Positions 9,515 to 60,960 of a DNA stretch of 61,633 bases are shown here, one piece after another (the stretch's first letter is position 1; every line of letters starts with the position of its first letter). The DNA is from a virus. Its lineage: Duplodnaviria > Caudoviricetes. Where the stretch lies: positions 1 to 61,633 of IMG/VR virus record IMGVR_UViG_3300010234_000011, one strand, 5' to 3'. A program made the position numbers and the translations under genes. The notes under the pieces are model-generated. The model worked only from the letters and a program-made list of their open reading frames with translations. It was not told the DNA's origin and did no database searches.

Positions 9515-9547
9515 CCCCGGCGGCGTAACAACCGTCGGGGGTTTTTT
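9515..9547 (+). terminator. rho-independent terminator at the convergence of the replication and structural arms
   Basis: ccccggcgg-cgtaacaa-ccgtcgggg followed by gtttttt. Confidence 0.8.
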
Positions 9548-12500: not shown

Positions 12501-15500
12501 GTCGTCGGCCATACGCTTGAGTTTCTCGTTTCTGCGCATGACGGTCTGGTGATGGTCGGTGACTACAGCCCATGCCTTCGCCGCCATAGGAAGCACGTCC
12601 TTGGCGTACTGAGTAAGGCTACGGAGCGGGACTACGAGACCCCGCCACACGCTGCCTACCTGCTTCGGCATCGGGGAGCGCGCTATAGTGCGCTGGATAG
12701 CGTCGAAGTTATCCTTCGCCAGCTCTGGGGCTGCGTCGTACGCGGACCGCATTACTCTACTCATGACCTTCGGGTCCGCCATAGAAGAAAATCGCGGTGT
12801 AGCGGTGTTCATCTCTGCCCCGACAGGGACGGCGGAAAGGATGCCGTCCACCAGCTCCGCGATCTCGTCAGTGGCCGCAATACCAGTTTCCGGGGTGGGG
12901 TACTTGCGCGGCTGCATCCCCATAATGCGCCTGATGAAGCCCTCCATTACCCGCTTCACCTTAGTGAGTAGACTTATCTCACTGTCCCGTTCCGCCATCA
13001 TGTCCAGCGCTTCTTGGAACCGCCCGTTAGTGAGGGCTTCGGCGGTAAACTCGTGCACATCCGTCAAGCTGGTGGACAGGTCCTCCTCCACCTGCAGTGA
13101 TGCAGCGGACTTCATGATGTTTTCCAGCCGTCGTCGCACCGGGCTGCTTGGTTTCTGCAGCTCGCTCTCGGTCGCCATGTGCACCGCTTCGTGCAGTAGC
13201 ACTGACTCATAGTCCTGCGCCCGCTCCGCTATCAGCATGGTGTTGGTGTCCGGCGTGAACGACCCGTAGGCGTACTTGTCGGAGAGGCCCCGGCGCAGGC
13301 GCGGGTCCGTGTCAGATACAACTTCGACCGTCGTGTTTCCGGTGTATTTGGACAGCTTAGACGCCAACTTCTTCATGCGTGCGTTACGTGCCGTGTAGCC
13401 CAGATGCTCAAGGGCCGCGGTCAGGTTCCCGGCGCGTAGGGCAGCACGTGCAAACGGGTGCAGGGGCGCGCGCAGAGAGGCGTGAACGGATTTTCGGCCG
13501 AGCTTCGCGGCATATTCGTCAGCACGCTGGTAGTTACCGTCCGTAGTGGCTGCGTCGGCCTCGGCCTTCGCCGCGTTCTCCTCCTGCTTCAGCGCCGCTA
13601 TCTGGGCCTCTAGGTCCGCTATCCTCGTAGCATCCGACCAACCAGACTGCTCCTGCTCCATCTGGAGGTCAATCTCCAGCTCGGTAATCCGCGCTGCGAT
13701 ATTCCTCGCGGCGGCTACGTCCTCTGGGGTCCCCACCGTGTAGTGGTGCTTCGCACGGCGGTCTAGGAATGTAATTGCGTCTGCGGACAGGTTATCGCGG
13801 ACCCACTCCTCTGCGACCTTCGCGCTCATTTTTGTGAGTCCGTCGTACAGCTTGGGGCCTTCAGCCGTCCCGACCTCTGACGCTTGGTTAGCGATTATCA
13901 CATCCAGCGCCGTTTCCGGCTTCGAGAACCGGGTAAAGAATCGCTGCGGCGCGAGAGTGCCCTCTTTCGCCGTCCCGCCCACCAACGCAATCAGCGCGTC
14001 ATAGTCACTTTCGGTAAGGGGGTCGAGCAACCCAGCTGTGTCCTCCTCGATGGCGTCCAGAAGTTCCCGCTCAGTAGGAGAAAGCGTGTCGTACCACTTA
14101 TTCCGACTGTCTGCGCCGACGCCCCGAAGTCTACCGCGCTTCTGGGCTTTGGGTGACGGGGCAGGTGCCTGCGCCGTACGAGGCGCACCTTGCACTTGCG
14201 CGGACGTTGGCTGCATATCGTTTGCATACGCAGTAACGGGGTTACGTACCCCACCGCCGAGCGCGTCCCGATTCCGCGCTTCCGGCTTGGCGGCCCACTG
14301 GTTCCCCCGGACCAGTGGCGCTTTACCTTTGTTGCTCTGGGCAAACGCGGAAGGGGCGGTCGTGGTCTCGGCATCTGGCGCAGCGTCTGGCGCGGTCGTG
14401 GTTTCGGCATCTGGCGCAGCGTCTGACGCAGTCGTGGTTTCTGTCTGGGGGTCCGCTATTGTTTTCCACCCCCCTAGAGCGGTAACGTCTTCGGGCGTTA
14501 GGACAATCTCTGTAGTCGGCTTGAAATCGTTATCCGCTGCGTACTCCAAACGGTCGTCGCCTTTGGGCATATCTATATAGCGTAGGGGGCCGCCGTCGCC
14601 CGCGAAGCCTTCCGCCCTCTCCCGAGAAGAAGTAACTGTATTTCCTAGCTTCGTTCCGTCGCTTGCAACATCGCCCCCATGGTACAGGCGAACATAGCCG
14701 TCGTCGGGATCCGCAGGTGCTGGCCCCACCGCAGGCGCGGCTTCTGGCTCCTCGAGCACATAGTTTTCCCAATCTTCTTCGGCCAGTGGCGCCAAAGCCC
14801 AGGGGCGCCGACTTCGGGGCGTCGGCGCCACTGGCGCAGGCGCGGCTTCTGGCTCCGCCGTAGGTTCGGCTTCGGCTTCGGCCACTGGCGCAGGCGCTGG
14901 TGCAGGCGCGGCTTCTGGCTCCGCCGTAGGTTCGGCTTCGGCTTCGGCTTCGGCCACTGGCGCAGGCGCAGGTGCAGGTGCAGGTGCAGGTGCAGGTGCA
15001 GGTGCAGGTGCAGGTGCAGGTGCAGGTTCGGCTTCGGCCACTGGCGCAGGCGCGGCTTCTGGCTCCGCCGTAGGTTCGGACGGCCATGGATTTAGCGTGC
15101 GCGATTTACCTCGCACGTAGGGAGGCACGAGGTTCGCCCTCTGAAGTCGGTTCATCAGATTAGTAGCTGGCCCCTGCGGTAGCCCCATTATCTCTCGTAG
15201 GGTCGGTATCGTCAGAGACTCGTACTCCTCCGTGTCCAGCGCCGCTGCGATTGTGTTGTATTCTTCCCGCAGATCGCCGTAGGCCACATTGGGAAAGCGG
15301 TACCCGCCAGTACTCGTCGTAGCTGCGGGTGCCCCAAGTTTAGCCGCTAGGGCTTCTGCGCGGCGGCTCCTGCCCAACGGTAGCGGTACGGAGCTACCAT
15401 CATCCGTATCCGGTTCAGCATCCGGCTCGGCATCCGGTTCGGCATCCGGTTCGGGTACGTCTTCCTTCGGGCCGCGGAACGGTCCCTGAACGGCACCGCC

Positions 15501-16400
15501 AAGACCGCCAAGAACAGCGGCACCAATGGCCACGTCGACGTATTCCGCAATGGCTTCGTCGTCGCCTATAGGCAGACCTGCCTGCGCGCGCTCTAGCAGC
15601 TGCTGTCCGACCTCTGTAGGAACTTCGGCGGCTACACCGCGAGCGCCGTACTGGCCTGTACGTACGAACAAATTTTTGGCTGACGGTAGTGGTACCCCCG
15701 ACCGCTGCAGACCCAGAAGTACCCGATCCGCCACAGAGTTCAGCGCGCCTTGCGCCACAGCGGTGGCTAGCGCCTTCCCGTATTCGCCGGGCTCTAGCGA
15801 CCGGCCGAGGACCTCCTCTTGGCGTTGAATGTTACTGCCAGCGAAGAGGGGAGAGACCATAGCCGTACCGCCCGCGATACCGCCCGCCAACGCACCCAAA
15901 GGGTTTCCGCCGGAAGCAATACCGCCCGCAATACCCCCGCCTACCGTTCCCGCTATACCTGCAATAGTATCCACAGCCGACCCGCCAGCCAGTTCGCCCG
16001 CGTAGGTAAGGGCCGAGGCGATGCTGTCAACGTCCTGACGAGATGTAGCAGGGGTAAGCCGACCAGCCTCCATGAGCTGTTCTTCGCGGGCGCTGGACTC
16101 CATGCCCGTACCCATACCCTCTAGCCAGTCAAAGTCCGCCTGCTCACCGGTACTGCGCAGCAGGGTACCAACCCTACCATAAGCGCCGGTCTTAGCCCGG
16201 TCCCATGCGCGCCCAAAGGCGGTGCCGTCATCATAGTCCTCGACGCCGTATTTGGCCTCGTAGTCGGCACGGAACTGAGCTTCCTGCGCCTCTACAAAAG
16301 CCTGCCCGCGAGCGGTCTCCGTAGCCGTTGGAGTGTCACCGTCGTATCTAAGCTCGTACGTGCGGCCACTATACGCACCGGGGACATATGCAGTGCCCAT
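9546..16400 (-). CDS. giant internal virion/ejection protein (large polyvalent protein) with zincin HExxH and PLxRFG-like motifs
   Basis: 2284 aa; last gene of the structural arm; LLHEAVHMAT...HEFTAEAL; YVPLVRDGRYWV; hydrophobic Gly/Ala helices; Pro/Ala/Glu linkers. Confidence 0.8.
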   Translation of the reverse strand: MGTAYVPGAYSGRTYELRYDGDTPTATETARGQAFVEAQEAQFRADYEAKYGVEDYDDGTAFGRAWDRAKTGAYGRVGTLLRSTGEQADFDWLEGMGTGMESSAREEQLMEAGRLTPATSRQDVDSIASALTYAGELAGGSAVDTIAGIAGTVGGGIAGGIASGGNPLGALAGGIAGGTAMVSPLFAGSNIQRQEEVLGRSLEPGEYGKALATAVAQGALNSVADRVLLGLQRSGVPLPSAKNLFVRTGQYGARGVAAEVPTEVGQQLLERAQAGLPIGDDEAIAEYVDVAIGAAVLGGLGGAVQGPFRGPKEDVPEPDAEPDAEPDAEPDTDDGSSVPLPLGRSRRAEALAAKLGAPAATTSTGGYRFPNVAYGDLREEYNTIAAALDTEEYESLTIPTLREIMGLPQGPATNLMNRLQRANLVPPYVRGKSRTLNPWPSEPTAEPEAAPAPVAEAEPAPAPAPAPAPAPAPAPAPAPAPVAEAEAEAEPTAEPEAAPAPAPAPVAEAEAEPTAEPEAAPAPVAPTPRSRRPWALAPLAEEDWENYVLEEPEAAPAVGPAPADPDDGYVRLYHGGDVASDGTKLGNTVTSSRERAEGFAGDGGPLRYIDMPKGDDRLEYAADNDFKPTTEIVLTPEDVTALGGWKTIADPQTETTTASDAAPDAETTTAPDAAPDAETTTAPSAFAQSNKGKAPLVRGNQWAAKPEARNRDALGGGVRNPVTAYANDMQPTSAQVQGAPRTAQAPAPSPKAQKRGRLRGVGADSRNKWYDTLSPTERELLDAIEEDTAGLLDPLTESDYDALIALVGGTAKEGTLAPQRFFTRFSKPETALDVIIANQASEVGTAEGPKLYDGLTKMSAKVAEEWVRDNLSADAITFLDRRAKHHYTVGTPEDVAAARNIAARITELEIDLQMEQEQSGWSDATRIADLEAQIAALKQEENAAKAEADAATTDGNYQRADEYAAKLGRKSVHASLRAPLHPFARAALRAGNLTAALEHLGYTARNARMKKLASKLSKYTGNTTVEVVSDTDPRLRRGLSDKYAYGSFTPDTNTMLIAERAQDYESVLLHEAVHMATESELQKPSSPVRRRLENIMKSAASLQVEEDLSTSLTDVHEFTAEALTNGRFQEALDMMAERDSEISLLTKVKRVMEGFIRRIMGMQPRKYPTPETGIAATDEIAELVDGILSAVPVGAEMNTATPRFSSMADPKVMSRVMRSAYDAAPELAKDNFDAIQRTIARSPMPKQVGSVWRGLVVPLRSLTQYAKDVLPMAAKAWAVVTDHHQTVMRRNEKLKRMADDVARDLEPLDASARKAFNEFTVKASRLEIDPRWSRADATKRFEKYSWRYRTEDATGAMSDFVYKYADSDAERTAAVNAYNAALPDKTRASYKARTAYDPDTEMLGEYTKLRDTYDAFSPEVQRAYDNVLGYYKYMHGETGRVLKRKLELLLPGQEKLQRTMYDELYNKIFNQASLTAYVPLVRDGRYWVTYQMYPKPDQPPEIVKHAFMSRQEQEAVVAALRKDDKVEQTSIEVTLTPWSRGGGSRSGALDLTFVHEAMNEVQKKIADTPLEGADPKQVSELATELRKSIGDLALAMMPEQSLMQSYRKRTGVRGAKGDKDGMPESLQGVIDDSASDVISTMLRKGGLLNRQLANVEFGSQAAAVEREMDAHRNARAAAGASMQELDKIDGYIEAIVPNMKNIYKEKNALVRGVNSVAYLWTLGANPSSALMNLTSMPVFIAPYLAAEHGYTPTYAAINHAMKVLGASGKERTVEYIKPDGTVGTRTERTNFGGRSLENYTLGDFDATANYAAGDNRLNHYSPLARAMERAGLFADSLIYDVLEADSIENAGTAQKVSRVSAWMMHTTESLTRETTAIAAFDLRLKAMAGGKRIREDGTMRVSDKLTQADLDLAAKGAVADTELTNGTIPAAGAPRFGAGAATPFYMFKRHPLAMLNLITTAFKQAFLDPAELDAARKEFGADSMQFKQAVFDRRAAKIQFASILTHLTALSGIAGLPLLTGAAAIYDMLLTDEDEPTLMELARMNIGELGYYGLANYMTGGALSGRIGLGGAIYRPPLGTGDQSPIFNVLEGIGGPAVGLTLGMQRRASRLYDDGEYWRMWEALVPAQIRNLMRGYRYYDEGGALSTRGDMITPMGVGFAAMQTMGIGSAAVVRAAEANSAGKRIETAITDKRSQLMRRLNVARRAGDGTGIDMAMMDIYEFNQKYPEYQITRKSREASKKSFDRTTGEMVGGVRLNPKLRGRIEELTPQRDSSSSFWEWLGLT
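14730..15080. repeat. Pro/Ala/Glu-rich coding repeats, including perfect (GCAGGT)x10 at 14968-15027
   Basis: Encodes (AP)n and EPTAEPEAAPAP repeats in the giant protein. Confidence 0.9.
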
Positions 16401-36864: not shown

Positions 36865-37482
36865 TTAGTTGTCTGCGTAGCCGTGCATCTCGATCAGGAA
36901 CTTGCCCGCAGTGTAGGTGGCCGCAGTGTCTCCGGTGCCCGCAGCCAAGTAGAGGTAGTAGTCTGCGGTCGGCCATGCAGTGAACACGTCAGTGGCCCCC
37001 AAAGTCGCGTCTCCGGCGTTAATCAACTGCGCGTAGTTCGTAAGACCCGTGACGTCAGCGCCGAGAACGCCCGTGGCAACCGAGGCATTGGACAAATCAA
37101 TATCGTTGTCCCCGCCAGCGGGGGTTTCCAGACATGTCATTGAACCTGCGTAGATCGTGCCGTTGTTCGCAGCGGTGACTTGGCCGAGGTGGGCCGCGCT
37201 GGCCCCAGTGCCGATGATGTCGTTGGCCGTGGCCACAGAGTCCAGACCCGTCAGGTCAATGTAGATGCGCGTGTAGAAGTGAGTGATGCCGTCCATAACG
37301 GTCTTGACGACCGAGGCTTTATAGATCGTGCCCGTGCCGTCAGAAATGCCGGAGCCTTCGGTCATTGGTGCCGAAGTCGTAACGCCGCGTGTCTGGGTAT
37401 ATACACCAGTCGTGGCGTTCTTGGAAACCTCAAGGAAGCCGTTCTGAGAGCGGACTGCCCCAGTAAAAGTTGTAGTAGCCAT
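36865..37482 (-). CDS. virion structural protein (head decoration-like)
   Basis: MATTTF.G.VRS.NGF start; beta-rich; strong RBS caggag. Confidence 0.65.
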   Translation of the reverse strand: MATTTFTGAVRSQNGFLEVSKNATTGVYTQTRGVTTSAPMTEGSGISDGTGTIYKASVVKTVMDGITHFYTRIYIDLTGLDSVATANDIIGTGASAAHLGQVTAANNGTIYAGSMTCLETPAGGDNDIDLSNASVATGVLGADVTGLTNYAQLINAGDATLGATDVFTAWPTADYYLYLAAGTGDTAATYTAGKFLIEMHGYADN

Positions 37483-37566
37483 GTCTATCTCCTGTCGTGG
37501 CTAGTGTCAGACGCACCATGCGCCTGTCAGGGATGCGAGCATCCTACACCTACCTCGTACGAATAG

Positions 37567-47018: not shown

Positions 47019-47636
47019 TCAGGTGGTAACCCCGTCAATATCGTTGACTGACCGCACACCGTCCCGCAACGCCCCCTGTTGCATTGTTCGATACGCCCTC
47101 CTCACTATCTGCCTAGCGCGTTCGCGCCCAACGCTCAAATGCGACCCGATTTCCTCAAGCGTTGCGCCTTCAAAGTGCATTGAAAGGGCGACACCGTGCC
47201 GTTCTGGCAGATCATCCGACCACTTAGCAAGCAGGCGGCGTGCTTCTGTCATACTACCGCTTTGCAGTTGGGGCAGTTCCTCCGTATTCATCTCAATCTC
47301 TGCGGTGGACTTCTTTGCGCGCAGATTGCGGATGTGTTCCGGCCACAGTTCGTCAGGATACATTGCCAACGCCGCAGCGATGTTGCGCGATACTTCGCGC
47401 CACTCGCCCTTCCTCGTGACCGGACTAGAACGCAGGCAAATCAAGGCATTTATAGCTGTGACGTTCTGACCGCTTGCCCGTGCGAACGCCGCAACACTGG
47501 GGTGTGCCTTTCTGATTGCCCTTAGCAGTCGGCCGTTGCGAACGCCGATTTTTATGTTGAGGTCCTTTGCCTCGTCTCGGGCCCCGGCTTCCGCCTTGTG
47601 CAGCTTTTCTGGGGTATATAGTGTGGGTTTAGGCAT
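47019..47636 (-). CDS. two-HTH regulator: Ner/XRE-like N-domain plus sigma70 region-4-like C-domain
   Basis: IAAAL..YPDELWP (Ner-like); L.ER....L.M.F....TLEEIG..L.V.RER.RQI (sigma region 4). Confidence 0.7.
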   Translation of the reverse strand: MPKPTLYTPEKLHKAEAGARDEAKDLNIKIGVRNGRLLRAIRKAHPSVAAFARASGQNVTAINALICLRSSPVTRKGEWREVSRNIAAALAMYPDELWPEHIRNLRAKKSTAEIEMNTEELPQLQSGSMTEARRLLAKWSDDLPERHGVALSMHFEGATLEEIGSHLSVGRERARQIVRRAYRTMQQGALRDGVRSVNDIDGVTT

Positions 47637-47936: not shown

Positions 47937-47957
47937 GGTTAAACGCGGCGTGTAACC
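47937..47957. promoter_or_regulatory. 21-bp palindrome copy (one mismatch), 9 bp upstream of a TTGACA -35
   Basis: ggttaaacg-cgg-cgtgtaacc; TTGACA at 47967-47972. Confidence 0.75.
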
Positions 47958-48044
47958 TCAGATCGGTTGACATGTGCCTCATTATGCTGCAATGTGTTCA
48001 TACGCGCTGCATTGGACGGCGCGCAACCAAACTAAGGAAACGAA

Positions 48045-48614
48045 ATGTCTACATTCAATCTGACGGCAAAGCGGATGACCGCTTTGGAAAACGCGGTTAG
48101 CGCCATGGTGGCCGCGCATAATGCGTCCACCTCGTTCGCGGGAACCGTTGAACAGCTGGCCAAGGCGGGTTTCTTGCCAGCCCACCTCACCTCGAGCGGC
48201 CAAGGCGGCAAACAGCCCGCTGGCGTCGCATACGAGGCCGCGATGGATATGACGGCGGTTCGCCTATTCAACGCCGCGGAGATGGCGATATGGCAAGGCG
48301 AAAAATGCAAAGAACGGTCGCGTTTGTCCAATCGGGCGTCCAAGTCCGTGGGACACCTGCGCAAAGCGCTGGATACGGCGGTTTTGTCCGAGGCGGGCGC
48401 GCACCGAACCGCGCGCGCGGGAAACACGAACAGCCCACTCGATGTAGTGCGCAATGTGTTGACCAAGGCTAACGCGCCACTTATCGCGTCCGCAAAAGCG
48501 GAAAAGCCGACAGAGGCGCAGGCGAAGCGGATTGCCGCTTTTGGGGGTATTGATATCCTCAAGATCACAATCGGCGCAATCGACGCTGCGCTGGCAACCG
48601 TACCGAAAAAATAA
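48045..48614 (+). CDS. stand-alone Ala-rich, helical-looking hypothetical protein
   Basis: taagga RBS; own TTGACA upstream; followed by two terminators. Confidence 0.75.
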   Translation: MSTFNLTAKRMTALENAVSAMVAAHNASTSFAGTVEQLAKAGFLPAHLTSSGQGGKQPAGVAYEAAMDMTAVRLFNAAEMAIWQGEKCKERSRLSNRASKSVGHLRKALDTAVLSEAGAHRTARAGNTNSPLDVVRNVLTKANAPLIASAKAEKPTEAQAKRIAAFGGIDILKITIGAIDAALATVPKK

Positions 48615-48620
48615 TACATC

Positions 48621-48650
48621 AACCCCGCGCCAATGGCGCGGGGTTTTTTT
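48621..48650 (+). terminator. rho-independent terminator 1
   Basis: aaccccgcgcca-a-tggcgcggggtt followed by a T-run. Confidence 0.88.
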
Positions 48651-48659
48651 GTGCCCATC

Positions 48660-48686
48660 GCCCGGCCAGTTTGGCCGGGCTTTTTT
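48660..48686 (+). terminator. rho-independent terminator 2 (tandem)
   Basis: gcccggcca-gtt-tggccgggc-tttttt. Confidence 0.85.
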
Positions 48687-48708
48687 GTGTCTTGCGTTTG
48701 GCGCATCG

Positions 48709-48956
48709 CACCAGTTTCGTGTACAGCGTAGAGCATGGCCATCGGCGCATCGACACGCCCCACCAGTTTCGTGTACAGCGTAGAGCATGGAGCATGGAGG
48801 TTACACGCGGCGTGTAACCTTGGCGCGCGCCCCACCAGTTTCGTGTACAGCGTAGAGCATGGCCCACACCGTAATCGTAGTCTAGGCAGCGACGTATTCC
48901 GCAACGCCAGCCATGCTAGCGCGTACAACCAGTTTCCAGTACAGCGTGGAGCGTTG
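48709..48956. repeat. interspersed 30-bp direct repeats (3 perfect, 1 degenerate)
   Basis: caccagtttcgtgtacagcgtagagcatgg at 48709, 48761 and 48833; accagtttccagtacagcgtggagcgttg at 48928. Confidence 0.9.
48799..48819. promoter_or_regulatory. 21-bp palindrome copy
   Basis: ggttacacg-cgg-cgtgtaacc. Confidence 0.85.
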
Positions 48957-48960
48957 TGGC

Positions 48961-48981
48961 GGTTACACGCGGCGTGTAACC
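48961..48981. promoter_or_regulatory. 21-bp palindrome copy
   Basis: ggttacacg-cgg-cgtgtaacc. Confidence 0.85.
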
Positions 48982-49084
48982 TTTATTTTTATGTTCCGAC
49001 CGCCCTTGGTCGATGGCCACGACCAAGGCTACACCCCCAGAATTAGCCTGTCAACCCCCCGAAAAACACCTAAAATAGGTGCGA

Positions 49085-49105
49085 GGTTACACGCCGCGTG
49101 TAACC
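49085..49105. promoter_or_regulatory. 21-bp palindrome copy
   Basis: ggttacacg-ccg-cgtgtaacc. Confidence 0.85.
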
Positions 49106-49752
49106 GACTTGTGAAATTTTATAGTTTGTTCCCAACGCTGTAGCGGCGACTAAGGCGACTAAGCGGCGCTTCGCCGCCGTGTTTTTAGGCGATGAACCCC
49201 TAGTGGCAAGCTAGCGCAATATTTACCTTGAGTCAGGCCGTTTAAAATCAATAGGTTAGATACAGGCGCACAAAGTAGAGGTTCAGAAGTTCTCACAACT
49301 ACTGCGAAATGAACCCGGACGAGCGCGGCTAAGGCACTGAAAAACAAGGATGTTGATGTGTACTTGCCCCAAAGAACCTCTGGTTTGGCCAAAATCAGTG
49401 CTCTCCAGCACGGATGGTGTTGTTGTTTTTGCCGAGTCCATCAAACCGCCAAACCACGCAGTTTTTCTGAAAACCCAGAACACTCTATTTTTGAGGTTCA
49501 GCAGGTTCAAAAGGGTCATTTATCTATGTATTTAACTATAAACCCTATAATAATAAGGCAAATCAGTGCAAGATAGCCCATGCAGGACAGAGGCGCACAA
49601 ATGCCCCAAATTGTGTGCACTTGACATGCAAAAAGCACCCCTAAAGGTTCACTATGCAAAGTAGAACCCCCTTTTTAGCGAAAACGTGTTTTGTATAATA
49701 GTCAGTACACATATTCTCTTACCTCTTCGCCTTTAAGTTGTAGTCAGCCCGA

Positions 49753-49773
49753 GGTTACACGCCGCGTGTAACC
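49753..49773. promoter_or_regulatory. 21-bp palindrome copy upstream of the AP2 gene pair
   Basis: ggttacacg-ccg-cgtgtaacc. Confidence 0.85.
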
Positions 49774-49842
49774 TATCCACGCAAGTTACCCCTTGTCATT
49801 CCGCTATCCACAACCTATCTCCTGCGTAGGAGGACGATTACC

Positions 49843-50349
49843 ATGAAAACACGACCTACACCCGAACAGCTGCACGAACTGCTGATAGTTAATGAGATCA
49901 GCGGCGACCTGACGTGGCGCGAGCGCCCGCCGGAAATGTTCAGCCACTGCAAGGACCCGGAAACCGCTGCATATAACTGGAACGCACGGCACTCTGGAAA
50001 ACCTGCATTGACCGCAGCATACCGGAAGGATGTGCCAGACCGCCCATGCGGTAAGATTTGGAACCGACGCTACTTTGCCCGCGATGTGGTGGAGGCGATG
50101 GTCATGGGTAAGTGGCCGGAGCCGCACGTCCGGAGCCGATCCGGCGTGACAGGCGTATACCATATAAAGGGCGGGCCCACAGGCGAACGCTGGTGCGCAC
50201 GTATCCTGCGCGACGGGAAGCTGCATAATCTGGGGACATACCGCAAGAAGGAGGATGCCATAGCGGCGCGGAAGCGTGCCGAGGAGCCGGAGGTAGTTGC
50301 TAAGCCCGTGGACGATACCGCTTGGGACAACATCAAGGAGCTGCTGTAA
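49843..50349 (+). CDS. HNH-endonuclease-derived AP2 DNA-binding protein lacking the HNH catalytic core
   Basis: Aligns by eye to 60400..60960 at the N-terminus (LHELL...G.L.WRERP.E.F.HCK.PE.A...WNA.H.GK.A) and AP2 domain (SGV.GV...W.A.I...GK..LG....AIAAR); the DH.NG..DN...NL segment is absent. Confidence 0.75.
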   Translation: MKTRPTPEQLHELLIVNEISGDLTWRERPPEMFSHCKDPETAAYNWNARHSGKPALTAAYRKDVPDRPCGKIWNRRYFARDVVEAMVMGKWPEPHVRSRSGVTGVYHIKGGPTGERWCARILRDGKLHNLGTYRKKEDAIAARKRAEEPEVVAKPVDDTAWDNIKELL

Positions 50350-50651
50350 TGGAGGTTAGTAAGGAACTGCGCGACCGCGTACTACGCATGAAGGCGAACG
50401 GCTGGCAGCCACAAAACCGGAAACCTCCGGTGGCTAGAACCCTGCGGCCGGTCACCGCAGATGGGGCAACAGGCGTCTCGTACGCCGCAGGAAAATACCG
50501 TGCCACCATCATAGAAAACGGCAAGCATCGGACGATTGGTCGCTTCAACACCAAGGAGGAGGCCGCGGCAGCACGTCGCGAAGCGGAGCGGCAGCGGAAG
50601 CGACGGCTACAGGTGCGACTAGCGCGGGAGAAGGTTACACGCCGCGTGTAA
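50349..50651 (+). CDS. AP2-domain DNA-binding protein
   Basis: ATG 50349 overlapping the previous TAA, RBS aaggag; GATGVSY..GKYRA.I..NGK...IGRF.TKEEAAAAR.EAE. Confidence 0.75.
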   Translation: MEVSKELRDRVLRMKANGWQPQNRKPPVARTLRPVTADGATGVSYAAGKYRATIIENGKHRTIGRFNTKEEAAAARREAERQRKRRLQVRLAREKVTRRV

Positions 50652-50653
50652 CC
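50633..50653. promoter_or_regulatory. 21-bp palindrome copy supplying the stop codon of the AP2 gene
   Basis: ggttacacg-ccg-cgtgTAAcc. Confidence 0.85.
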
Positions 50654-50711
50654 TCGCCAGTTTCCTGCCCCACGTAAGAACTAATTAGGTGGTATACGAA
50701 CTAATTAGGAC

Positions 50712-50740
50712 TTGACAACTGTGTCCCAATGTGTCATACT
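50712..50740 (+). promoter_or_regulatory. strong sigma70 early promoter
   Basis: TTGACA(50712-50717)-N17-CATACT(50735-50740). Confidence 0.8.
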
Positions 50741-50746
50741 GTGATT

Positions 50747-50783
50747 GTTCAGGCTTCACTGTCTGGGCGACGCTCTTTGACAT
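50747..50783 (+). promoter_or_regulatory. rrn/nut-like antitermination site (boxB-like hairpin plus boxA)
   Basis: gttcaggc-ttcact-gtctgggc hairpin, then CGCTCTTTGACA (50771-50782) vs boxA consensus (C/T)GCTCTTTAACA. Confidence 0.6.
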
Positions 50784-50798
50784 GACTGGATTGCCATA

Positions 50799-50850
50799 GG
50801 TTACACGCCACGTGTAACCTGCCCAGCTAGGTTACACGCCACGTGTAACC
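50799..50850. promoter_or_regulatory. two tandem 21-bp palindrome copies (50799-50819, 50830-50850)
   Basis: ggttacacg-cca-cgtgtaacc twice, 31-bp period. Confidence 0.85.
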
Positions 50851-50869
50851 GATGATGCAGGATCACAGA

Positions 50870-51260
50870 CAGATGGATAGCAGCACCGCTGCCCGTTGTT
50901 CGTGAGTGAAGTAAACACACCTATGGTTGCCCTCCGGTGTGGTAGAATTGCCTAGGAAGCCACTCGCCTGTAAGCGCACCGACCGTGCCCGGTACAGGCC
51001 AGCGAACAACGCGCAGATATGCTATCTGAAAGATGACTGGCGGCGCTTGTGCGCAACACGACACCACCCCTCAGCCCCATGCAAGTAGCCGCTAATGCCA
51101 CGTTCATCCCAACCACCGCACCTGCCGAGAATGTAGGGTAAGCGGACGTCCCCAGCACGACAGTGCTGGCTAAGGTGGTCCTACGGTACACGAAAAGTAC
51201 AGCGACAATATTCTGGCGGGCTGCTAACGCGGCCCGTTCAGCCATGCTGTTGCATGTAAC
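50870..51260 (+). ncRNA. candidate large structured non-coding/leader RNA
   Basis: No credible ORF; many nested complementary segments (listed in findings); downstream of a strong promoter. Confidence 0.55.
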
Positions 51261-51281
51261 CACCAACCAAGGAGAGACGAT

Positions 51282-51416
51282 ATGACATTTAACGACCAGA
51301 CCCGCACCTTGCGCGAATGGCTGCGCCACGAACTGGACGCATTGCCGCGTACAGTAACCCTGCCGGGTTACACGCCGCGTGTAACCACTAACCAAGGAGG
51401 ATTGAAAAATGACTGA
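51282..51416 (+). CDS. 44-aa early micro-ORF (not in the ORF track)
   Basis: aaggag RBS; MTFNDQTRTLREWLRHELDALPRTV... Confidence 0.4.
   Translation: MTFNDQTRTLREWLRHELDALPRTVTLPGYTPRVTTNQGGLKND
51366..51386. promoter_or_regulatory. 21-bp palindrome copy fused to an AC-rich RBS leader
   Basis: ggttacacg-ccg-cgtgtaacc-actaaccaaggagg. Confidence 0.85.
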
Positions 51417-51618
51417 CACATCAAACGGATATGTTTGCTTTTACAAGGACCAGCGGATCGAAGTCCATGCCGACACTTCCGCCAACGCGCAGATCAGCGC
51501 CTACAACATTCTCAAGGGGATGTACCCGCGCCGCAAGATCAAGGCGTGGGAAATCACGGTGATGCTGGCGGAGCGGAGCGACGGCACTGCCGTCGTGCAC
51601 AGTACGCAGCACCTTTAA
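51409..51618 (+). CDS. small early hypothetical protein
   Basis: Strong RBS; GYVCFYK..RIEV.A.T...AQ, I.VMLAE. Confidence 0.7.
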   Translation: MTDTSNGYVCFYKDQRIEVHADTSANAQISAYNILKGMYPRRKIKAWEITVMLAERSDGTAVVHSTQHL

Positions 51619-51640
51619 CCACTAACCAAGGAGAACTACC

Positions 51641-52555
51641 ATGAACATGAACCTTCCCGCCCCGACGGCTGTGCCGTCTCTCGCCAGCGCAGCTGTGTTA
51701 GTAGCGCTCCACATCGGCAAGTGGGGCGCGTCCAAGAAGGACAAGCGCGCGTCCGCAGAAGTGGCGCGGGTTAACCACGTCACCGACGAGAAACTCGTTA
51801 GGACGTACAAGACTTTAATGTCCAGCCCCAAGTTGAAGGCACTACAGTCGTTCGTTACCCGCGCGTACGAGATCAACCGCAATATGACGCTGGATTGGGC
51901 CGCGTCGGGAGGGCTGCGCCTATGCCCGACTACGGTATACCCGGAGCACGTACATACAATGTCTAAACTGAAGGCGGAATACGACCGCCTCGTGGCTGAT
52001 TTCGGTGCAGACTACAACCTGCTTGTAGTCAGTAAACAGGCGGAACTGGGGTCGCTGTACGATCCCGCAGACTACCCATCGTGGGATATATTGGCACGGA
52101 AGTTCTACTTCCGTGTTGACGTGATGCCCATCGCCGACCCAAGCGGTACGGACATCCGGCTGGATATTGCAGCCGAGACAGAGGCTCACATCCGCGAGCA
52201 TTATCAGCGGATGCACGAGCAGACGCTACAGCAGGTCACGCGTGGCCTGTGGGAGCGGGTCAATAACCTACTTGTCGGCGACGACGAGAAGGGAACTGTC
52301 GGGCTTATCCAGAACCTCGACGAGGGCGGGCGCATGTCTGCCCGCAAGCTGGACGATGCTAAGGAATTGGTGTCCATGCTCGACGACCTGAATATCACGG
52401 GCGACCCGGCGCTTACCCGTGCAGCGTTGTCGCTGCGCGAGGCGTTTGCTTACGTCGACGACGTGGCGGACGTCAAACCCAAGAGCGGCGGACGCGATAC
52501 GCTCCGTCGCGACCTTGAGACAGTGAAGGCATCGCTGCCGACACTGGGCTGGTAA
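51641..52555 (+). CDS. DUF3150-like protein upstream of the AAA/vWA pair
   Basis: A.LV.L.I..W...K.D, LGSLYDP.DYP, LNITGDP.L; gene context. Confidence 0.65.
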   Translation: MNMNLPAPTAVPSLASAAVLVALHIGKWGASKKDKRASAEVARVNHVTDEKLVRTYKTLMSSPKLKALQSFVTRAYEINRNMTLDWAASGGLRLCPTTVYPEHVHTMSKLKAEYDRLVADFGADYNLLVVSKQAELGSLYDPADYPSWDILARKFYFRVDVMPIADPSGTDIRLDIAAETEAHIREHYQRMHEQTLQQVTRGLWERVNNLLVGDDEKGTVGLIQNLDEGGRMSARKLDDAKELVSMLDDLNITGDPALTRAALSLREAFAYVDDVADVKPKSGGRDTLRRDLETVKASLPTLGW

Positions 52556-52580
52556 CAGCCCCACCATCACCACCACCGGG

Positions 52581-52601
52581 GGTTACACGCAACGTGTAAC
52601 C
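52581..52601. promoter_or_regulatory. 21-bp palindrome copy
   Basis: ggttacacg-caa-cgtgtaacc before the AAA gene. Confidence 0.85.
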
Positions 52602-52626
52602 TCCAACCAAACTGAGAGGAAACACC

Positions 52627-53709
52627 ATGAATATGTACGATCTAAATATCAATGAGTGCGTGGCGCTCATTGCAGCTACCGGGCACGAGGTAACGACCCT
52701 CGTGCAGGGCGACATGGGTGGGGGCAAGTCCTCCGTCCTGACGATGCTCGCCGAGAAATTTTCCGGCCATACGTCGTTCTACGCGGACATGACCACCAAG
52801 GACTTGGGCGATGTTACGATCCCCAACATCGCCAAGCTGGACGATGGGACGGGGTATGTCACCTACCTGACCAACGAAGAGTTCGGTGTGCACCTCGACA
52901 AGCCGATCATCCTCATGATCGACGAGTTCGGTAAGGCCAACCCGGCGGTAAAGCTGGCTATGCTGCGCCTCATGCTAGAGCGTAAGATTGGCAGCTATAC
53001 GCTGCACCCTGAAAGTATCGTGTTTGCCACGACTAACCTTGGTGCGGAGGGTGTGGGTGATCTGTTGCCGCCACATGCGCGGAACCGCATGTCGGTTGTC
53101 CGCATGGCCAAGCCGACCGCTGATATGTGGATCGAGTGGGGGATCAACAACAATATTGACCCGGCCCTGCTTGGGTGGGTTAAGGACAACCCGCACTGTC
53201 TGGACTCCTTCACGGACGTGACGGACCCGAAAGAAAATCCATATATCTTCCACCCGCAGGCCAAGGAGCGTACAGCGTTTGTTACGCCGCGTTCGTTGGC
53301 ACTGTTCTCCAAGACGTTGGAGAAGCGCGATATCTTGGGCGACAAGATCACCACCGCCCACGGCGTCGGGTTGATCGGTGCGCAGGCTGCGTTCGATATG
53401 CAGGCGTATATCAAGCTGGGGGATCAACTGCCGTCACGGCAGGATATTCTGGACAGTCCGAATACGGCCCCCGTGCCGTCGTCGGTAGCGGCTATGTGTA
53501 TGGTGATCTTCCGTGCGCTGTCCACCATGGACCGCGAGTTCATCGACCCGTGGATGGACTACCTCGTGCGTCTGCCTGAGGACAGTCAGGGGCTGTTCGT
53601 AAATGGCGTCCGCGCCGACAACTATTCGCACAAGGGCATAGCGATGACGAACAAGAAGTTCACCCAGTGGGTGGACAACAGCAAGTTCTTGTTCACTGCC
53701 GACGTATGA
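52627..53709 (+). CDS. MoxR/CbbQ-like AAA+ ATPase
   Basis: Walker A GDMGGGKS, Walker B ILMIDE, sensor-1 ATTN, arginine finger NR, sensor-2 TPRS. Confidence 0.85.
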   Translation: MNMYDLNINECVALIAATGHEVTTLVQGDMGGGKSSVLTMLAEKFSGHTSFYADMTTKDLGDVTIPNIAKLDDGTGYVTYLTNEEFGVHLDKPIILMIDEFGKANPAVKLAMLRLMLERKIGSYTLHPESIVFATTNLGAEGVGDLLPPHARNRMSVVRMAKPTADMWIEWGINNNIDPALLGWVKDNPHCLDSFTDVTDPKENPYIFHPQAKERTAFVTPRSLALFSKTLEKRDILGDKITTAHGVGLIGAQAAFDMQAYIKLGDQLPSRQDILDSPNTAPVPSSVAAMCMVIFRALSTMDREFIDPWMDYLVRLPEDSQGLFVNGVRADNYSHKGIAMTNKKFTQWVDNSKFLFTADV

Positions 53710-53718
53710 CACCACCGG

Positions 53719-53739
53719 GGTTACACGCAACGTGTAACC
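53719..53739. promoter_or_regulatory. 21-bp palindrome copy
   Basis: ggttacacg-caa-cgtgtaacc between the AAA and vWA genes. Confidence 0.85.
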
Positions 53740-53759
53740 CCCAACCAAGGAGAATTACT

Positions 53760-54956
53760 ATGAACGACCTAACCACATCACAACGGCTCAGGAAGGCCGG
53801 TATGGCCATCATGGCGCACAAGGAATACGTCGCCATGAACGGCGTGTTTATGATTGGCACAAAGCGTGCCGAGGCCGACGCCGCCAAGTGTCCTACCGCG
53901 TACACGGATGGGATTAACGAGGTATACGGCGATGATTTCGTCGCTACCTTGAGCGATCCAGAACTGCGCTTCCTTATGATCCATGAGTGCAAGCACAAGA
54001 TGCGGCGCGATATGGCTGTGCACAAGCACCTGTGGGATTCAGATCGGGGGCTTGCCAACAGCGCCTGCGATTTCGTCATTAACGGTGAGATAGTCGAGGC
54101 CCACCGGAACGACGGCTTCGCCACCATGACGGGGCCGCTCCAGCAGGGATGCTACAATCCCAAGTACACGGGCTGGAGTACGGTGCGCGTGTTTAACGAT
54201 CTGCGTAAGCAGCAACAAGAAACTGGCAAGACTGGCGGCGGCGGCAACGAGCCGTTTGACGAGCACGACTGGGAAGCTGCGCAGGATATGACGCCCGAAG
54301 AAGCAAGCGAGATTGCGCGGGAGATCGACACCGCGCTGCGTCAGGGCGCTATAGCAGCGGGTAAGTTGGGCCTCGACGTCGCTCGTGATATGCAGGAGTT
54401 GCTCAAGCCCAAGATTGACTGGCGCGAGGTGCTCCGCGAGTTCATCACCGAGACGTGTGCCGGACGGGACTACAGCACGTGGCGTAGGCCCAACCGTAAG
54501 TTCGTTAGTGCGGGTGTGTACATGCCAAGCGGCGTGTCGGAGAAGGTAGGACGCATCCTTACCGGCGCAGATATGTCTGGGTCCATCGGCGTGCGGGAGC
54601 AGAGCGTTATCCTTGGTGCGATTGCCGACATGGCCGACCTCGTGCACCCGGACGGTCTGGATATGGTCTACTGGGACACGGAAGTGCGGGCGCACGAAGC
54701 GTACGACGCCTCCGAGGTTAGCACGTTCGTGCAGTCTACTAAACCGCGAGGCGGTGGTGGCACGGATGTAGAGTGCGTCCCTGCGTTCATGCAAGAGGAA
54801 CAGTTGACGCCGCAGTGCGCGATCATTCTAACTGATGGTTATCTGTATGGCGGCTGGGGCGAGTGGCCCTGCCCGGTGCTGTGGGTAATCTTCGACAATG
54901 CCAGCGCGACGCCGACGTGCGGCACAGCTGTTCATGTGGAAACAGGAGATTTGTGA
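53760..54956 (+). CDS. DUF2201-like metallopeptidase plus vWA protein
   Basis: Start reassigned to 53760 (aaggag); PTAYTDG, HECKH (HExxH), N.ACD.VIN; MIDAS DMSGS, GGGT, LTDGY. Confidence 0.85.
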   Translation: MNDLTTSQRLRKAGMAIMAHKEYVAMNGVFMIGTKRAEADAAKCPTAYTDGINEVYGDDFVATLSDPELRFLMIHECKHKMRRDMAVHKHLWDSDRGLANSACDFVINGEIVEAHRNDGFATMTGPLQQGCYNPKYTGWSTVRVFNDLRKQQQETGKTGGGGNEPFDEHDWEAAQDMTPEEASEIAREIDTALRQGAIAAGKLGLDVARDMQELLKPKIDWREVLREFITETCAGRDYSTWRRPNRKFVSAGVYMPSGVSEKVGRILTGADMSGSIGVREQSVILGAIADMADLVHPDGLDMVYWDTEVRAHEAYDASEVSTFVQSTKPRGGGGTDVECVPAFMQEEQLTPQCAIILTDGYLYGGWGEWPCPVLWVIFDNASATPTCGTAVHVETGDL

Positions 54957-55156
54957 TGCCATACGGCAGCGGCAGCGGTAGCGGCGGCGGCAGGGGCGAC
55001 GGTAGGGGCAGCGGTAACGGCAACGGCTACGGCGAAGGCAGCGGCGACGGCAGGGGCGACGGCAGCGGCACTGGCAACGGCTACGGCGACGGCAGCGGCG
55101 ATGGCAGCGGCAACGGCAACGGCTACGGCGACGGCTACGGCAGCGGCAACGGGTAG
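54956..55156 (+). CDS. (Gly-X)n micro-protein 1 (66 aa)
   Basis: TGATG coupling to the vWA gene, RBS aggag; MPYGSGSGSGGGRGDG...GNG. Confidence 0.7.
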   Translation: MPYGSGSGSGGGRGDGRGSGNGNGYGEGSGDGRGDGSGTGNGYGDGSGDGSGNGNGYGDGYGSGNG

Positions 55157-55167
55157 GAGGTGCAGAT

Positions 55168-55341
55168 ATGCCTGACGGCAAAGGCAAAGGCTACGGCAAC
55201 GGCAACGGCTACGGCGGCGGCAGCGGCAACGGCAGCGGCAGCGGCGTCGGCAGCGGCAACGGCAGCGGCAACGGCAACGGCGACGGCAGCGGTAGCGGCG
55301 ACGGCGGGGGCGACGGGCAGGCCGTACGAATACAACTATAA
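55168..55341 (+). CDS. (Gly-X)n micro-protein 2 (57 aa; not in the ORF track)
   Basis: RBS aggaggt at 55155-55161; MPDGKGKGYGNGNGYGGGSG...GDGQAVRIQL. Confidence 0.7.
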   Translation: MPDGKGKGYGNGNGYGGGSGNGSGSGVGSGNGSGNGNGDGSGSGDGGGDGQAVRIQL

Positions 55342-55367
55342 CCCAACTGAAACTTAGGAGACTACAA

Positions 55368-55682
55368 ATGCAGATACTCAAAGAGCTAATCGGCCAGAAG
55401 GTCATCATCCGTTCCGGCGACAGTGGGGTGCACTATGGCACGTTGCAGGAATGGGAGGACGGCGCAGTCCATCTGACTGACTCGCGACGTCTGTGGTACT
55501 GGGAGATTGACGGCGAAGGTGTGAGCCTGTCTGAAGTGGCCATTCAAGGCGTCGATCAGAAGAAGTCGACGGTCACCATGACCCTGCCGCATATTTTCGT
55601 CAGCGGCGTGTGCGAGATTATCCCGGCACATGGGCTCGCTATTGCCACAATCGAAGGTGCACCCATCGGTAAGGCTAAGTAA
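55368..55682 (+). CDS. DUF6948-like small beta-barrel protein
   Basis: IG.KVIIR...SGVHYGTL......V.L..SRRLWYW....SLSEVA..GV...EIIP pattern (family recalled, not searched). Confidence 0.7.
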   Translation: MQILKELIGQKVIIRSGDSGVHYGTLQEWEDGAVHLTDSRRLWYWEIDGEGVSLSEVAIQGVDQKKSTVTMTLPHIFVSGVCEIIPAHGLAIATIEGAPIGKAK

Positions 55683-55703
55683 GGTTACACGCAACGTGTA
55701 ACC
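55683..55703. promoter_or_regulatory. 21-bp palindrome copy directly after a stop codon and before an RBS
   Basis: TAA-ggttacacg-caa-cgtgtaacc-accaactaaggag. Confidence 0.85.
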
Positions 55704-60018: not shown

Positions 60019-60307
60019 GGCAGCGAAGCTGGCCACGGAGCGAGGTGCGGTGGCGCAGGAGGGGTGGATGCTTTTAAGCGTTAGCCGCCACCCGAACAAG
60101 GCTAGGGTCGTATTGCGCCGCCCGCCCGGCGGCTTCCGGCGCTTTAAGTCGCTATGGCTGACGACCACGCCAGTCGAGATTAATGGATGGGGATGGATCA
60201 GACTGGACCCTCGGCCACCGACAAATGCGTACGGCGCTACGGAACCGCGAGTGCTGATTTCGACAAGTGGCAAGGGTGGCTGGAGGCGGCTAGAAGTTGG
60301 CGATTAG
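60011..60307 (+). CDS. hypothetical protein
   Basis: 98 aa, ggag RBS, overlapping start. Confidence 0.5.
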   Translation: MTKAAKLATERGAVAQEGWMLLSVSRHPNKARVVLRRPPGGFRRFKSLWLTTTPVEINGWGWIRLDPRPPTNAYGATEPRVLISTSGKGGWRRLEVGD

Positions 60308-60348
60308 TCGACGAAGCTGGACACGCGGCTGTCCTTTCGGTAGGAAGG

Positions 60349-60378
60349 GGGCGGGGCTGTAACCAGCAGCCACCGCCC
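60349..60378 (+). promoter_or_regulatory. leader hairpin, copy B (twin at 47664..47692)
   Basis: gggcggggctgta-acc-agcagccaccgccc just upstream of the ggagg RBS of the HNH gene. Confidence 0.6.
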
Positions 60379-60399
60379 ACACAGCGAATGGAGGTCGCC

Positions 60400-60960
60400 A
60401 TGTCTAAAACATCTATAATCTCAGTCTCAACACTTCACAAGGTCTTGCGTTGCGACCCCGACGCCGGAACGTTGCACTGGCGCGAGAGACCCGTCGAGCT
60501 TTTTGGCCACTGCAAAAATCCTGAACATGCTTGCGCTTCGTGGAATGCCAAACACGCAGGTAAGGAGGCGTTTACGGGGGACGACAGCAAGGGCTATCGG
60601 AAAGGCAGAATCTTCCATCGCCGCTACCGAGCCCATAGAGTACTCTACGCGATGGCGACAGGTGCGTGGCCGCCGGATCAGATCGACCACGTGAACGGCG
60701 TCAGGACCGACAATCGGATCGAAAACCTACGGAGTGTTACCCACGCCGAGAACGGACGCAATCAGGCCATTCCCCGCAACAACACCAGCGGCGTCATGGG
60801 AGTGGCCCGGCGCACGCGGGGTAAGAAGTGGCACGCGCAGATCAAGGTTGGCGGCAAGCAAATCCACCTAGGCTCGTTCGACGACAAGGACGAGGCCATC
60901 GCAGCCCGCGCCGCTGCCGATATCGAACACGGATTTCACGAAAATCACGGGCGCGACTAG
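60400..60960 (+). CDS. HNH homing endonuclease with C-terminal AP2 domain
   Basis: Start reassigned to 60400; AHRV...WP..QIDHVNG.RTDNRIENLR.VT..EN..N; NTSGV.GV...W.AQI...LGSF. Confidence 0.9.
   Translation: MSKTSIISVSTLHKVLRCDPDAGTLHWRERPVELFGHCKNPEHACASWNAKHAGKEAFTGDDSKGYRKGRIFHRRYRAHRVLYAMATGAWPPDQIDHVNGVRTDNRIENLRSVTHAENGRNQAIPRNNTSGVMGVARRTRGKKWHAQIKVGGKQIHLGSFDDKDEAIAARAAADIEHGFHENHGRD

Follow-up and report, generated by a model that had tools for sequence, protein, structure and literature searches.

A candidate structured 5′ leader with a boxA-like element at the front of the early operon of an uncultivated phage

At the front of the early operon of an uncultivated phage, represented by the IMG/VR virus record IMGVR_UViG_3300010234_000011, lies a region that we read, with a probability of roughly one half, as a cis-acting structured 5′ leader whose boxA-like element would recruit host Nus factors and avert Rho termination. 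The window analyzed is the whole record (61,633 base pairs (bp), CheckV completeness 99%, end repeats absent). A first-pass annotation, made from the letters of the DNA, had flagged positions 50870 to 51260 as a candidate novel two-domain structured RNA. Judged against its relatives, this segment appears to be the variable core and 3′ tail of a leader that is otherwise conserved, most strongly just upstream of 50870. Its placement as non-coding DNA at the front of the early operon was confirmed; a near-consensus sigma70-type promoter on the + strand stands directly upstream.

Syntenic IMG/VR records were found by a degenerate palindrome scan and by a search with an alignment of the downstream protein of 304 amino acids (aa). 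Three of these records, G001 (L022), G004 (L023), and G005 (L071), carry a long non-coding stretch at the place of the leader. Together with the window and with X4, a variant derived from sequencing reads, they form a leader family of four records and one read-derived variant, with homologous leaders at equivalent places. The shared order comprises a sigma70-like promoter, a small hairpin, the boxA-like element, a short motif (A), an operator-like palindrome, and a second motif (D), followed by a long-range helix (P-long) that encloses a core of several hairpins, an A/C-rich tail bearing a GC-rich hairpin, and a Shine-Dalgarno site. The promoters of G001, G005, and G004 are likewise of the sigma70 type with a TG (10-11 of 12 matches), and likeness between the window and these three records is confined to short, collinear blocks. 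With transcription starting near 50747, as the promoter suggests, the leader would span approximately 535 nucleotides (nt) to the ATG at 51282, or approximately 660 nt if the doubtful first open reading frame (ORF) is not real; the predicted lengths in G001, G004, and G005 are approximately 561, 569, and 373 nt. The features of the window are as follows.

50712 to 50740, + strand: sigma70-type promoter TTGACA-17-CATACT with TG 5′ of the -10 (10 of 12 matches).
50766 to 50862, + strand: conserved 5′ module, from the boxA-like element through motif D, matched by the covariance model R2.
50771 to 50782, + strand: boxA-like element CGCTCTTTGACA, the sole match to YGCTCTTTRNNA in the window.
50799 to 50819, no strand assigned: first palindrome copy, GGTTACACG-CCA-CGTGTAACC, operator-like; a 9-bp hairpin if RNA.
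50821 to 50831, + strand: motif A, GCCCAGCTAGG, identical in G001 and G004 and GCCACAGCTAGG in G005; consensus GCC(C/A)CAGCTAGG.
50830 to 50850, no strand assigned: second palindrome copy, positionally equivalent to a palindrome in every relative.
50850 to 50858, + strand: motif D, CGATGATGC, the same in G005 and CGATAATGC in G001 and G004; consensus CGAT(G/A)ATGC.
50860 to 50866, + strand: 5′ strand of P-long, GGAUCAC, pairing with 51175-51181.
50875 to 51027, + strand: domain I, a three-way junction closed by a long interrupted helix and bearing hairpins at 50916-50941 and 50966-50999 (z -4.08).
51050 to 51115, + strand: C-rich, G-poor, largely unpaired, rut-like stretch containing motif B (GC skew -0.44 at 51050-51109).
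51073 to 51083, + strand: motif B, AGCCCCATGCA, common to G001; AGCCCCACGCA in G004; consensus AGCCCCA(T/C)GCA.
51116 to 51145, + strand: hairpin C, with outer stem CCGC/GCGG, inner stem CCUGC/GUAGG, and loop CGAGAAU.
51152 to 51169, + strand: hairpin D, CCAGCAC-GACA-GUGCUGG.
51175 to 51181, + strand: 3′ strand of P-long, GUGGUCC, pairing with 50860-50866.
51217 to 51236, + strand: GC-rich hairpin of the 3′ tail, CGGGCUGC-UAAC-GCGGCCCG, with no U tract behind it.
51255 to 51284, + strand: palindrome half-site TGTAACC, ACCAACCAAGGAG ribosome-site cassette, and start codon (ATG) of a 44-codon ORF that is doubtful.

The boxA-like sequence reads GCTCTTTGACA in the window (50772-50782) and GCTCTTTATCA at the equivalent position of G001, G004, and G005, and across the leaders it follows the pattern GCTCTTT(G/A)(A/T)(C/T)A. 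It lies approximately 25-55 nt past the putative start in all four records, with a small hairpin 5′ of it in each lineage; in X4, the sequence GCGCTCTTTGATA is present in the unaligned flank of the contig. Both forms agree at 10 of 11 positions with GYTCTTTAANA, given as the gamma-proteobacterial boxA consensus in a portion of PMC5725501, although this may not be the consensus of the host. The boxA of a Legionella CRISPR array is GTTCTTTAAAA, according to an extract of PMC7862264. Because the pattern is not rare in shuffled sequence, the case for a boxA rests on its position and its conservation across otherwise diverged leaders.

The whole 5′ module was assessed via a covariance model (R2) built from G005, G001, and G004 only, with the window excluded. 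Run over the whole window on both strands with filters off, R2 gave a single match, at 50766-50862 (18.7 bits, E 0.015). Motif D is partly complementary to the boxA-like element. In the four-row alignment of the module, 94.7% of cells were paired compared with 84.4% in shuffles (1/500), pairing fell to 30-40% when the partners were slid, and five pairs had changed on both sides; this alignment was fitted to R2, and the figures are therefore biased in favor of pairing.

P-long begins directly after motif D in every lineage and finds its partner far downstream (2351-58/2499-2506 in G005, 6310-18/6559-67 in G001, and 2432-40/2683-91 in G004). Both partners of pairs 2, 4, 5, and 6 vary from lineage to lineage. 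With 50851-51200 of the window folded by itself, P-long belongs to the minimum-energy structure and has a probability above 0.93. The core within P-long measures 322 nt in the window, 156 nt in G005, 258 nt in G001, and 260 nt in G004. Apart from hairpin C and motif B it could not be aligned between lineages, and four-way MAFFT alignments of the whole leader were unreliable there. Hairpin C is built in two tiers in the window and likewise in G001 and G004; of its four outer pairs, three have changed on both sides, and the loops read CGAGAAU in the window and in G001 and CUAGACA in G004. The two-domain architecture proposed at first did not find support, the relatives having instead a single closing helix (50860-66/51175-81) around a lineage-variable core, placed after the 5′ module at 50766-50862.

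The leaders of the relatives fold stably, with a z of -4.64 on the + strand against -2.05 on the - strand in G001 and of -4.51 against -2.61 in G005; in both, none of 100 shuffles was as good as the + strand. G001 and G004 are identical in 353 of 462 aligned columns. Laid over a structure predicted from G001 only, the 109 substitutions of G004 break 25 pairs where 41.0 +/- 3.7 are expected (0/3000 simulations) and include eight double-sided changes against 2.9 expected (20/3000). The reciprocal substitution test on the + strand gave 1/3000.

All the complementary segments listed for the flagged segment in the first-pass annotation are present at their coordinates. Domain I (50875-51027) is indeed a minimum-energy fold (-62.2 kcal/mol, 1/200 shuffles as good), with a closing helix made of GGAUAGCA/UGCUAUCU plus CUGC-C-CGUUGUUCG/CGAACAACG-C-GCAG. 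The comparison with shuffles, which had been proposed as a check, came out in favor of domain I but not of the whole of 50870-51260 (391 nt), for which z is -1.70 on the + strand (5/100) and -1.20 on the - strand; domain II alone has a z of -1.80 (8/200 shuffles as good). The long-range helices drawn for domain II are not retained in the context of the leader, with a pair probability of at most 0.005 for accacc/ggtggt and of approximately 0 for catgcaa/ttgcatg.

Public sequencing runs yielded 16 rows with part of the stretch, none listed as RNA. The X4 contig (2,021 nt) spans 50823-51256 with 21 other letters and 23 gap letters, and its flanks are unlike the window at 80% likeness. Divergence is uneven, with two substitutions and one 13-nt deletion in 50864-51055 and 14 substitutions and 10 inserted letters in 51056-51200. 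The deletion removes the apex of the hairpin at 50916-50941 and leaves a stem of 4-5 bp, and at 51007 a C>U change replaces a G-C pair in the long helix of domain I by G-U. Hairpin D has four stem changes that keep all pairing (51157/51164 from A-U to G-C, and 51154 and 51166 to G-U), a change at 51134 in hairpin C turns a G-U into a G-C, and U>C at 50863 does the same in P-long. The local hairpins of domain II, ccagcac-gaca-gtgctgg and cctgc/gtagg, are accordingly kept in X4; the hairpin drawn as gtac-acgaaaa-gtac (51186-51200) is not, being broken by one change and interrupted by insertions. Changes at 51093/51094 break the minimum-energy linker helix 51038-39/51093-94. Compensatory changes among homologs, which bear on another check proposed at the outset, were found for P-long, for hairpins C and D, and for the G001/G004 fold; the core as a whole is not conserved between lineages. 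Selection for RNA pairing in part of the flagged segment is supported by these substitution patterns.

The palindrome GGTTACACG-N3-CGTGTAACC occurs 13 times in the window (3122-55703) and never in shuffles. Twelve copies lie within 47937-55703, mostly about 20 nt 5′ of a ACYAACCAAGGAG ribosome-site cassette and start codon. The palindrome (50830-50850) and the half-site (51255-61) that the first-pass annotation saw as the bounds of the segment are both present. The copy at 50799-50819 is missing from X4 and G005 at that place, where G001 and G004 have another hairpin, with a covarying stem (two pairs swapped) and an identical loop. X4 and G005 have the form GGTTATACG-N3-CGTATAACC, in which both arms are altered in step, and G001 and G004 mainly AGTTAGA-N5-TCTAACT. 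Since the arms are invariant and the three central bases variable, the palindrome is read as the site of a dimeric protein, probably a lineage-specific DNA-binding regulator, and the sequence is also compatible with a role as an RNA hairpin.

Behind P-long, the leaders continue with an A/C-rich stretch, the GC-rich hairpin without a U tract, a palindrome (reduced to the half-site in the window and complete in X4 and G005), and the ribosome site. In G005, G001, and G004 a GC-rich hairpin likewise occupies this relative place; the window hairpin is identical in X4, and that comparison is therefore uninformative. A contig of run X1 joins 51262 to 51344, and the 81 nt that it skips (51263-51343) include the ribosome site as well as the beginning of the 44-codon ORF at 51282. 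This ORF is therefore not conserved and is probably not a gene, and the leader may extend to the ATG at 51409.

In the mechanism that we favor, host RNA polymerase would initiate at the sigma70-type promoter; a host polymerase is assumed because no phage RNA polymerase was found among the window proteins scanned. The boxA-like RNA would then recruit a host Nus complex centered on NusB/NusE, as at the lambda nut sites, rrn leaders, suhB, and CRISPR arrays. Being long and untranslated, with a C-rich, G-poor stretch, the leader would be a natural Rho target, and the Nus-loaded polymerase would cross approximately 0.5 kb of untranslated RNA with C-rich stretches without Rho-dependent termination. 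It would possibly also cross the hairpin-punctuated operon behind the leader. A palindrome-binding phage regulator would most likely gate transcription of the leader, and the structured core would adjust how the first gene is translated or how the RNA is processed. An antiterminator was among the functions offered in the first-pass annotation and comes closest of them, although the signal is boxA-like (of the nut/rrn type) and not a put-like RNA.

Several observations weigh against this Nus-dependent leader. The boxA-like motif departs from the gamma-proteobacterial consensus at position 8 or 9 in every lineage, and 26 of 100 shuffles of the window contain at least one match to YGCTCTTTRNNA. 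GYTCTTTRWNA occurs four times in G004, just once within the leader, as well as once in G005 and not at all in G006-G008. The motif is moreover paired, with motif D in the R2 consensus and with the Shine-Dalgarno site in the four-way fold (all four rows, 7 bp in the window), and its conservation could at least partly reflect this pairing instead of Nus binding. In the model search the 5′ module was absent from all six more distant relatives (G002, G003, and G006-G009). Domain I, the best-folding part, has no sequence counterpart in G001, G004, and G005, and a model of the G001/G004 core (R1) scored 8.5 bits on the window leader, no better than at unrelated sites. In the minimum-energy fold of the full-length window leader P-long is missing, lying 1.2 kcal/mol above it with a pair probability of approximately 0.06. 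The strand is also less clear than desirable, as the substitution test on the - strand was significant in one direction (21/3000) and not in the other (2743/3000), and the G001/G004 consensus fold is lower on the - strand (-117.75, 10 compensatory pairs) than on the + strand (-96.55, 11). Between the window and X4, pairing retention on the + strand of 50870-51260 is suggestive (17 substitutions breaking two pairs against 5.2 expected, 183/5000, in an underpowered permutation test); the test was not significant for the + strand of 50745-51290, nor for the - strand. Finally, where transcription starts, which strand the RNA comes from, and whether Nus or Rho matters are all inferred.

Some of the same evidence fits another account, which we consider unlikely: the P-long core (50860-51181) may be excised, e.g., by RNase III, and act as a free, lineage-specific trans-acting RNA (a decoy, an anti-defense RNA, or a binder of a host protein), the boxA-like element helping the structured RNA to be made and folded, as in rRNA operons. 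The order of a boxA-like element and then a long-range helix enclosing folded RNA resembles the leader-trailer arrangement of rrn operons, as described in a portion of PMC10250234. P-long covaries, conserved flanks enclose a core that is hypervariable between lineages, and domain I is near-identical in the window and X4 next to sequence that differs by approximately 10%. P-long is, however, just 7-12 bp, there is no terminator behind the core, transcription would continue into the genes, and a search of the rest of the genome found no complement to the core. A more daring version, which we hold to be doubtful, is that the phage has copied the logic of rRNA operons, in which case a boxA-loaded, Rho-resistant polymerase would make a core enclosed by a leader-trailer-like helix that is excised and accumulates early as a lineage-specific RNA; its sequence turnover would then stem from an arms race, the RNA serving, e.g., to decoy a host defense or an RNA-binding factor. 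A role at the level of DNA only (operator, promoter, or origin-proximal control), with the RNA folds as a by-product of palindromes and GC-rich sequence, would account for the 13 palindromes with invariant arms and variable centers, which are typical of dimeric DNA-binding protein sites, for the iterons and AT-rich stretch just upstream, and for some covariation signal on the - strand. It is nevertheless improbable, as none of domain I, hairpins C and D, and P-long is a palindromic repeat, pairing on the + strand survives changes to and from G-U, z-scores are consistently stronger on the + strand, and the G001/G004 hairpin behind the boxA-like element swaps two stem pairs with its loop kept.

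Phage P4 CI and P1 c4 are processed small RNAs that pair with repeated leader targets, leading to premature termination or a translational block. An immunity or attenuation system of this kind, with a leader-derived small RNA pairing with target sites in the same transcript, would suit a long untranslated early-operon leader and a lineage-specific core such as heteroimmune phages would need. It is very improbable here given that no repeated complementary targets were found (perfect complements of at least 8 nt, blastn-short); palindromes aside, such complements of the leader were limited to a 9-nt domain I stem strand and one 8-nt pair. The multi-way junctions and the stable fold might equally suggest a riboswitch, a ribozyme, or another RNA dependent on a ligand or on catalysis, which is just as hard to uphold since no Rfam family reached the threshold and the core is unconserved between lineages, unlike a binding pocket or an active site. 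The ribozyme option of the first-pass annotation fares no better, no ribozyme or riboswitch model having matched. The abundant non-coding RNA, the decoy, and the anti-defense RNA proposed there likewise gained no support. Small proteins encoded in the region are the least credible explanation. The + strand has ORFs of 30-53 codons and the - strand has one of 155 codons, but none has an ATG with a ribosome site, the 13-nt deletion and 10 inserted letters of X4 shift every frame, the leader ORFs of G001 and G004 are in different frames, and the 155-codon ORF runs antisense into the downstream + strand genes. The absence of a credible ORF, claimed at first from the window, is thereby upheld, with frames broken by the X4 indels and not conserved among the relatives.

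With Rfam 15 at the gathering threshold, no family matched in the flagged segment, in agreement with the novelty first claimed for it; the models covered include pRNA, 6S, ribozymes, riboswitches, and large ornate RNAs. The sole match in the whole window was a Mu-gpT-DE RNA outside the leader, at 37480-37532 on the - strand within the structural gene block (74.9 bits, gathering score 49). A permissive Rfam scan of 50600-51450 gave five weak matches to microRNA models (E 0.031-8), far below threshold, four of them at palindromes and one at 50964-51056. A scan of the window for tRNA and tmRNA found none.

Attempts to enlarge the leader family gave little. A nucleotide search of the leader against GenBank phages had no match, a search of G001-G003 with the DNA of the window leader gave nothing significant, and the first gene behind the G001/G004 leader, used as a query, brought no further relatives. 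Two scans with motif B and the hairpin C loop returned 2 and 38 stretches, of which only L034 and L017 are related (the known G004 and G001); the rest were two unrelated protein-coding gene families and singletons. The exact palindrome was found in no IMG/VR stretch, in one stretch of species genomes, and in 12 stretches of metagenome contigs, among which only the short fragments L007 and L015 are related, neither spanning the leader.

By its sequence, the window phage is an orphan, uncultivated lineage of marine type. Its large terminase is at most 45% identical to those of GenBank phages, the top matches being phage 023Pt_psg01 and Pelagibacter phage HTVC027P, and the 304-aa protein 3′ of the flagged segment had no match among GenBank phages and, used alone, none in IMG/VR either. 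Structural genes occupy the - strand from 9546 to 47636, and early and replication genes the + strand from approximately 48045 onward, continuing at position 1; the latter include an N4 gp24-like ATPase, a DUF2201 protein, a DNA polymerase (family-A-type match), an exonuclease, a helicase, and a primase.

Upstream of the leader, an iteron-like array at 48701-48958 holds four direct repeats of approximately 30-40 nt (core CCAGTTTCGTGTACAGCGTAGAGCATGG) interleaved with palindromes, 3′ of two terminator-like hairpins (48621-48680) and 5′ of an AT-rich stretch (~49110-49740). A comparable array in G001, CACCAGTTACTTCAGGCGGTGGTG (L022 ~5215-5430), is accompanied by an AT-rich stretch containing GGAACATTA repeats. 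Both arrays look like iterons of an origin or a partition site. Between the AT-rich stretch and the leader promoter stand two small ORFs (49843-50651; 168 and 109 aa), with matches limited to the AP2-like part of HNH endonuclease families; as G001, G004, and G005 have no genes at that place, they look like an insertion. A full HNH-type ORF is located at 60187-60960.

On the - strand, a 2,284-aa ORF (9546-16400) matches a DarB-like antirestriction family at residues 1850-2266 (E 8e-27). Weak similarity to an RNA polymerase sigma-factor family (E 3.3e-6, residues 131-194) was seen for the first gene of the - strand block (47019-47636), whose product could be a late-gene regulator or merely contain a helix-turn-helix. 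Among the relatives, the divergent control region of G001 (L022 ~3583-3660) contains a tRNA-like sequence, recognized by eye only, and soon after its leader G005 has an ORF made almost entirely of GGC-TAC/AAC repeats, which is Gly-Tyr/Asn-rich (L071 3157-3378).

Detailed knowledge of boxA-type antitermination comes solely from lambdoid phages and a small number of cellular loci. Should the motif be functional, marine and estuarine phages that are uncultivated and unrelated to lambda use the host Nus machinery for their early operon, which would widen the reach of Nus/Rho control in phage biology via an unusually long, folded leader. A limited literature search found no description of a phage leader of this type; its size, closing helix, and variable core have no known counterpart, and the boxA/nut-type phage leader as a kind is already known. 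The leaders form a small new family of structured RNAs without an Rfam entry, with a conserved 5′ module and a fast-changing core, and offer a handle on early-gene timing in these orphan phages.

The put RNA of phage HK022 is approximately 70 nt long, consists of two stem-loops, and is not known to need Nus factors. Like put, the leader would be a cis-acting RNA just behind an early promoter that makes host polymerase termination-resistant, whereas its conserved signal is boxA-like and its folded part much larger and variable. The phi29 pRNA similarly folds in two parts with a three-way junction and is made from the first early promoter, at the genome end. In contrast, no Rfam family matched here, and given an ordinary large terminase and a family-A-type DNA polymerase match, the window phage lacks the phi29-type packaging and replication set.

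In lambda, according to an extract of PMC5725501, nutL is located approximately 200 bp 5′ of N, the intervening RNA is highly structured, and the Nus/N complex also represses translation of N. The leaders share with lambda pL-nutL-N a promoter-proximal boxA-type motif, a hairpin, a long structured untranslated stretch, and a host polymerase (here assumed), a comparison in which sequence similarity has no part. At 373-569 nt, however, they are two to three times longer, and behind the boxA-like element they have an operator-like palindrome or a hairpin peculiar to the lineage. These hairpins differ between lineages, and no loop of the lambda boxB type was identified among them. An N-like arginine-rich protein was not seen by eye, and the small ORFs behind the leaders had no family matches, although no dedicated search for N homologs was made.

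Outside rRNA and lambdoid phages, boxA also acts in the untranslated RNA of suhB and of CRISPR arrays, where it affects downstream expression (portions of PMC5725501 and PMC7862264), and along untranslated CRISPR arrays it raises expression (PMC7862264, same portion). The loci in question are cellular and have short leaders or repeat arrays, whereas here a phage early operon and a large folded core are involved. The rRNA leader, as outlined in a portion of PMC10250234, carries boxB, boxA, and boxC plus a leader-trailer helix around the rRNA. The phage leaders resemble it in having a small hairpin, a boxA-type motif, and then a long-range helix around folded RNA, with P-long in the role of the leader-trailer helix. 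No boxC was recognized, P-long has 7-12 bp in place of a long RNase III stem, and the enclosed RNA is 156-322 nt, lineage-variable, and followed by protein genes; P-long itself covaries and occurs in all four lineages.

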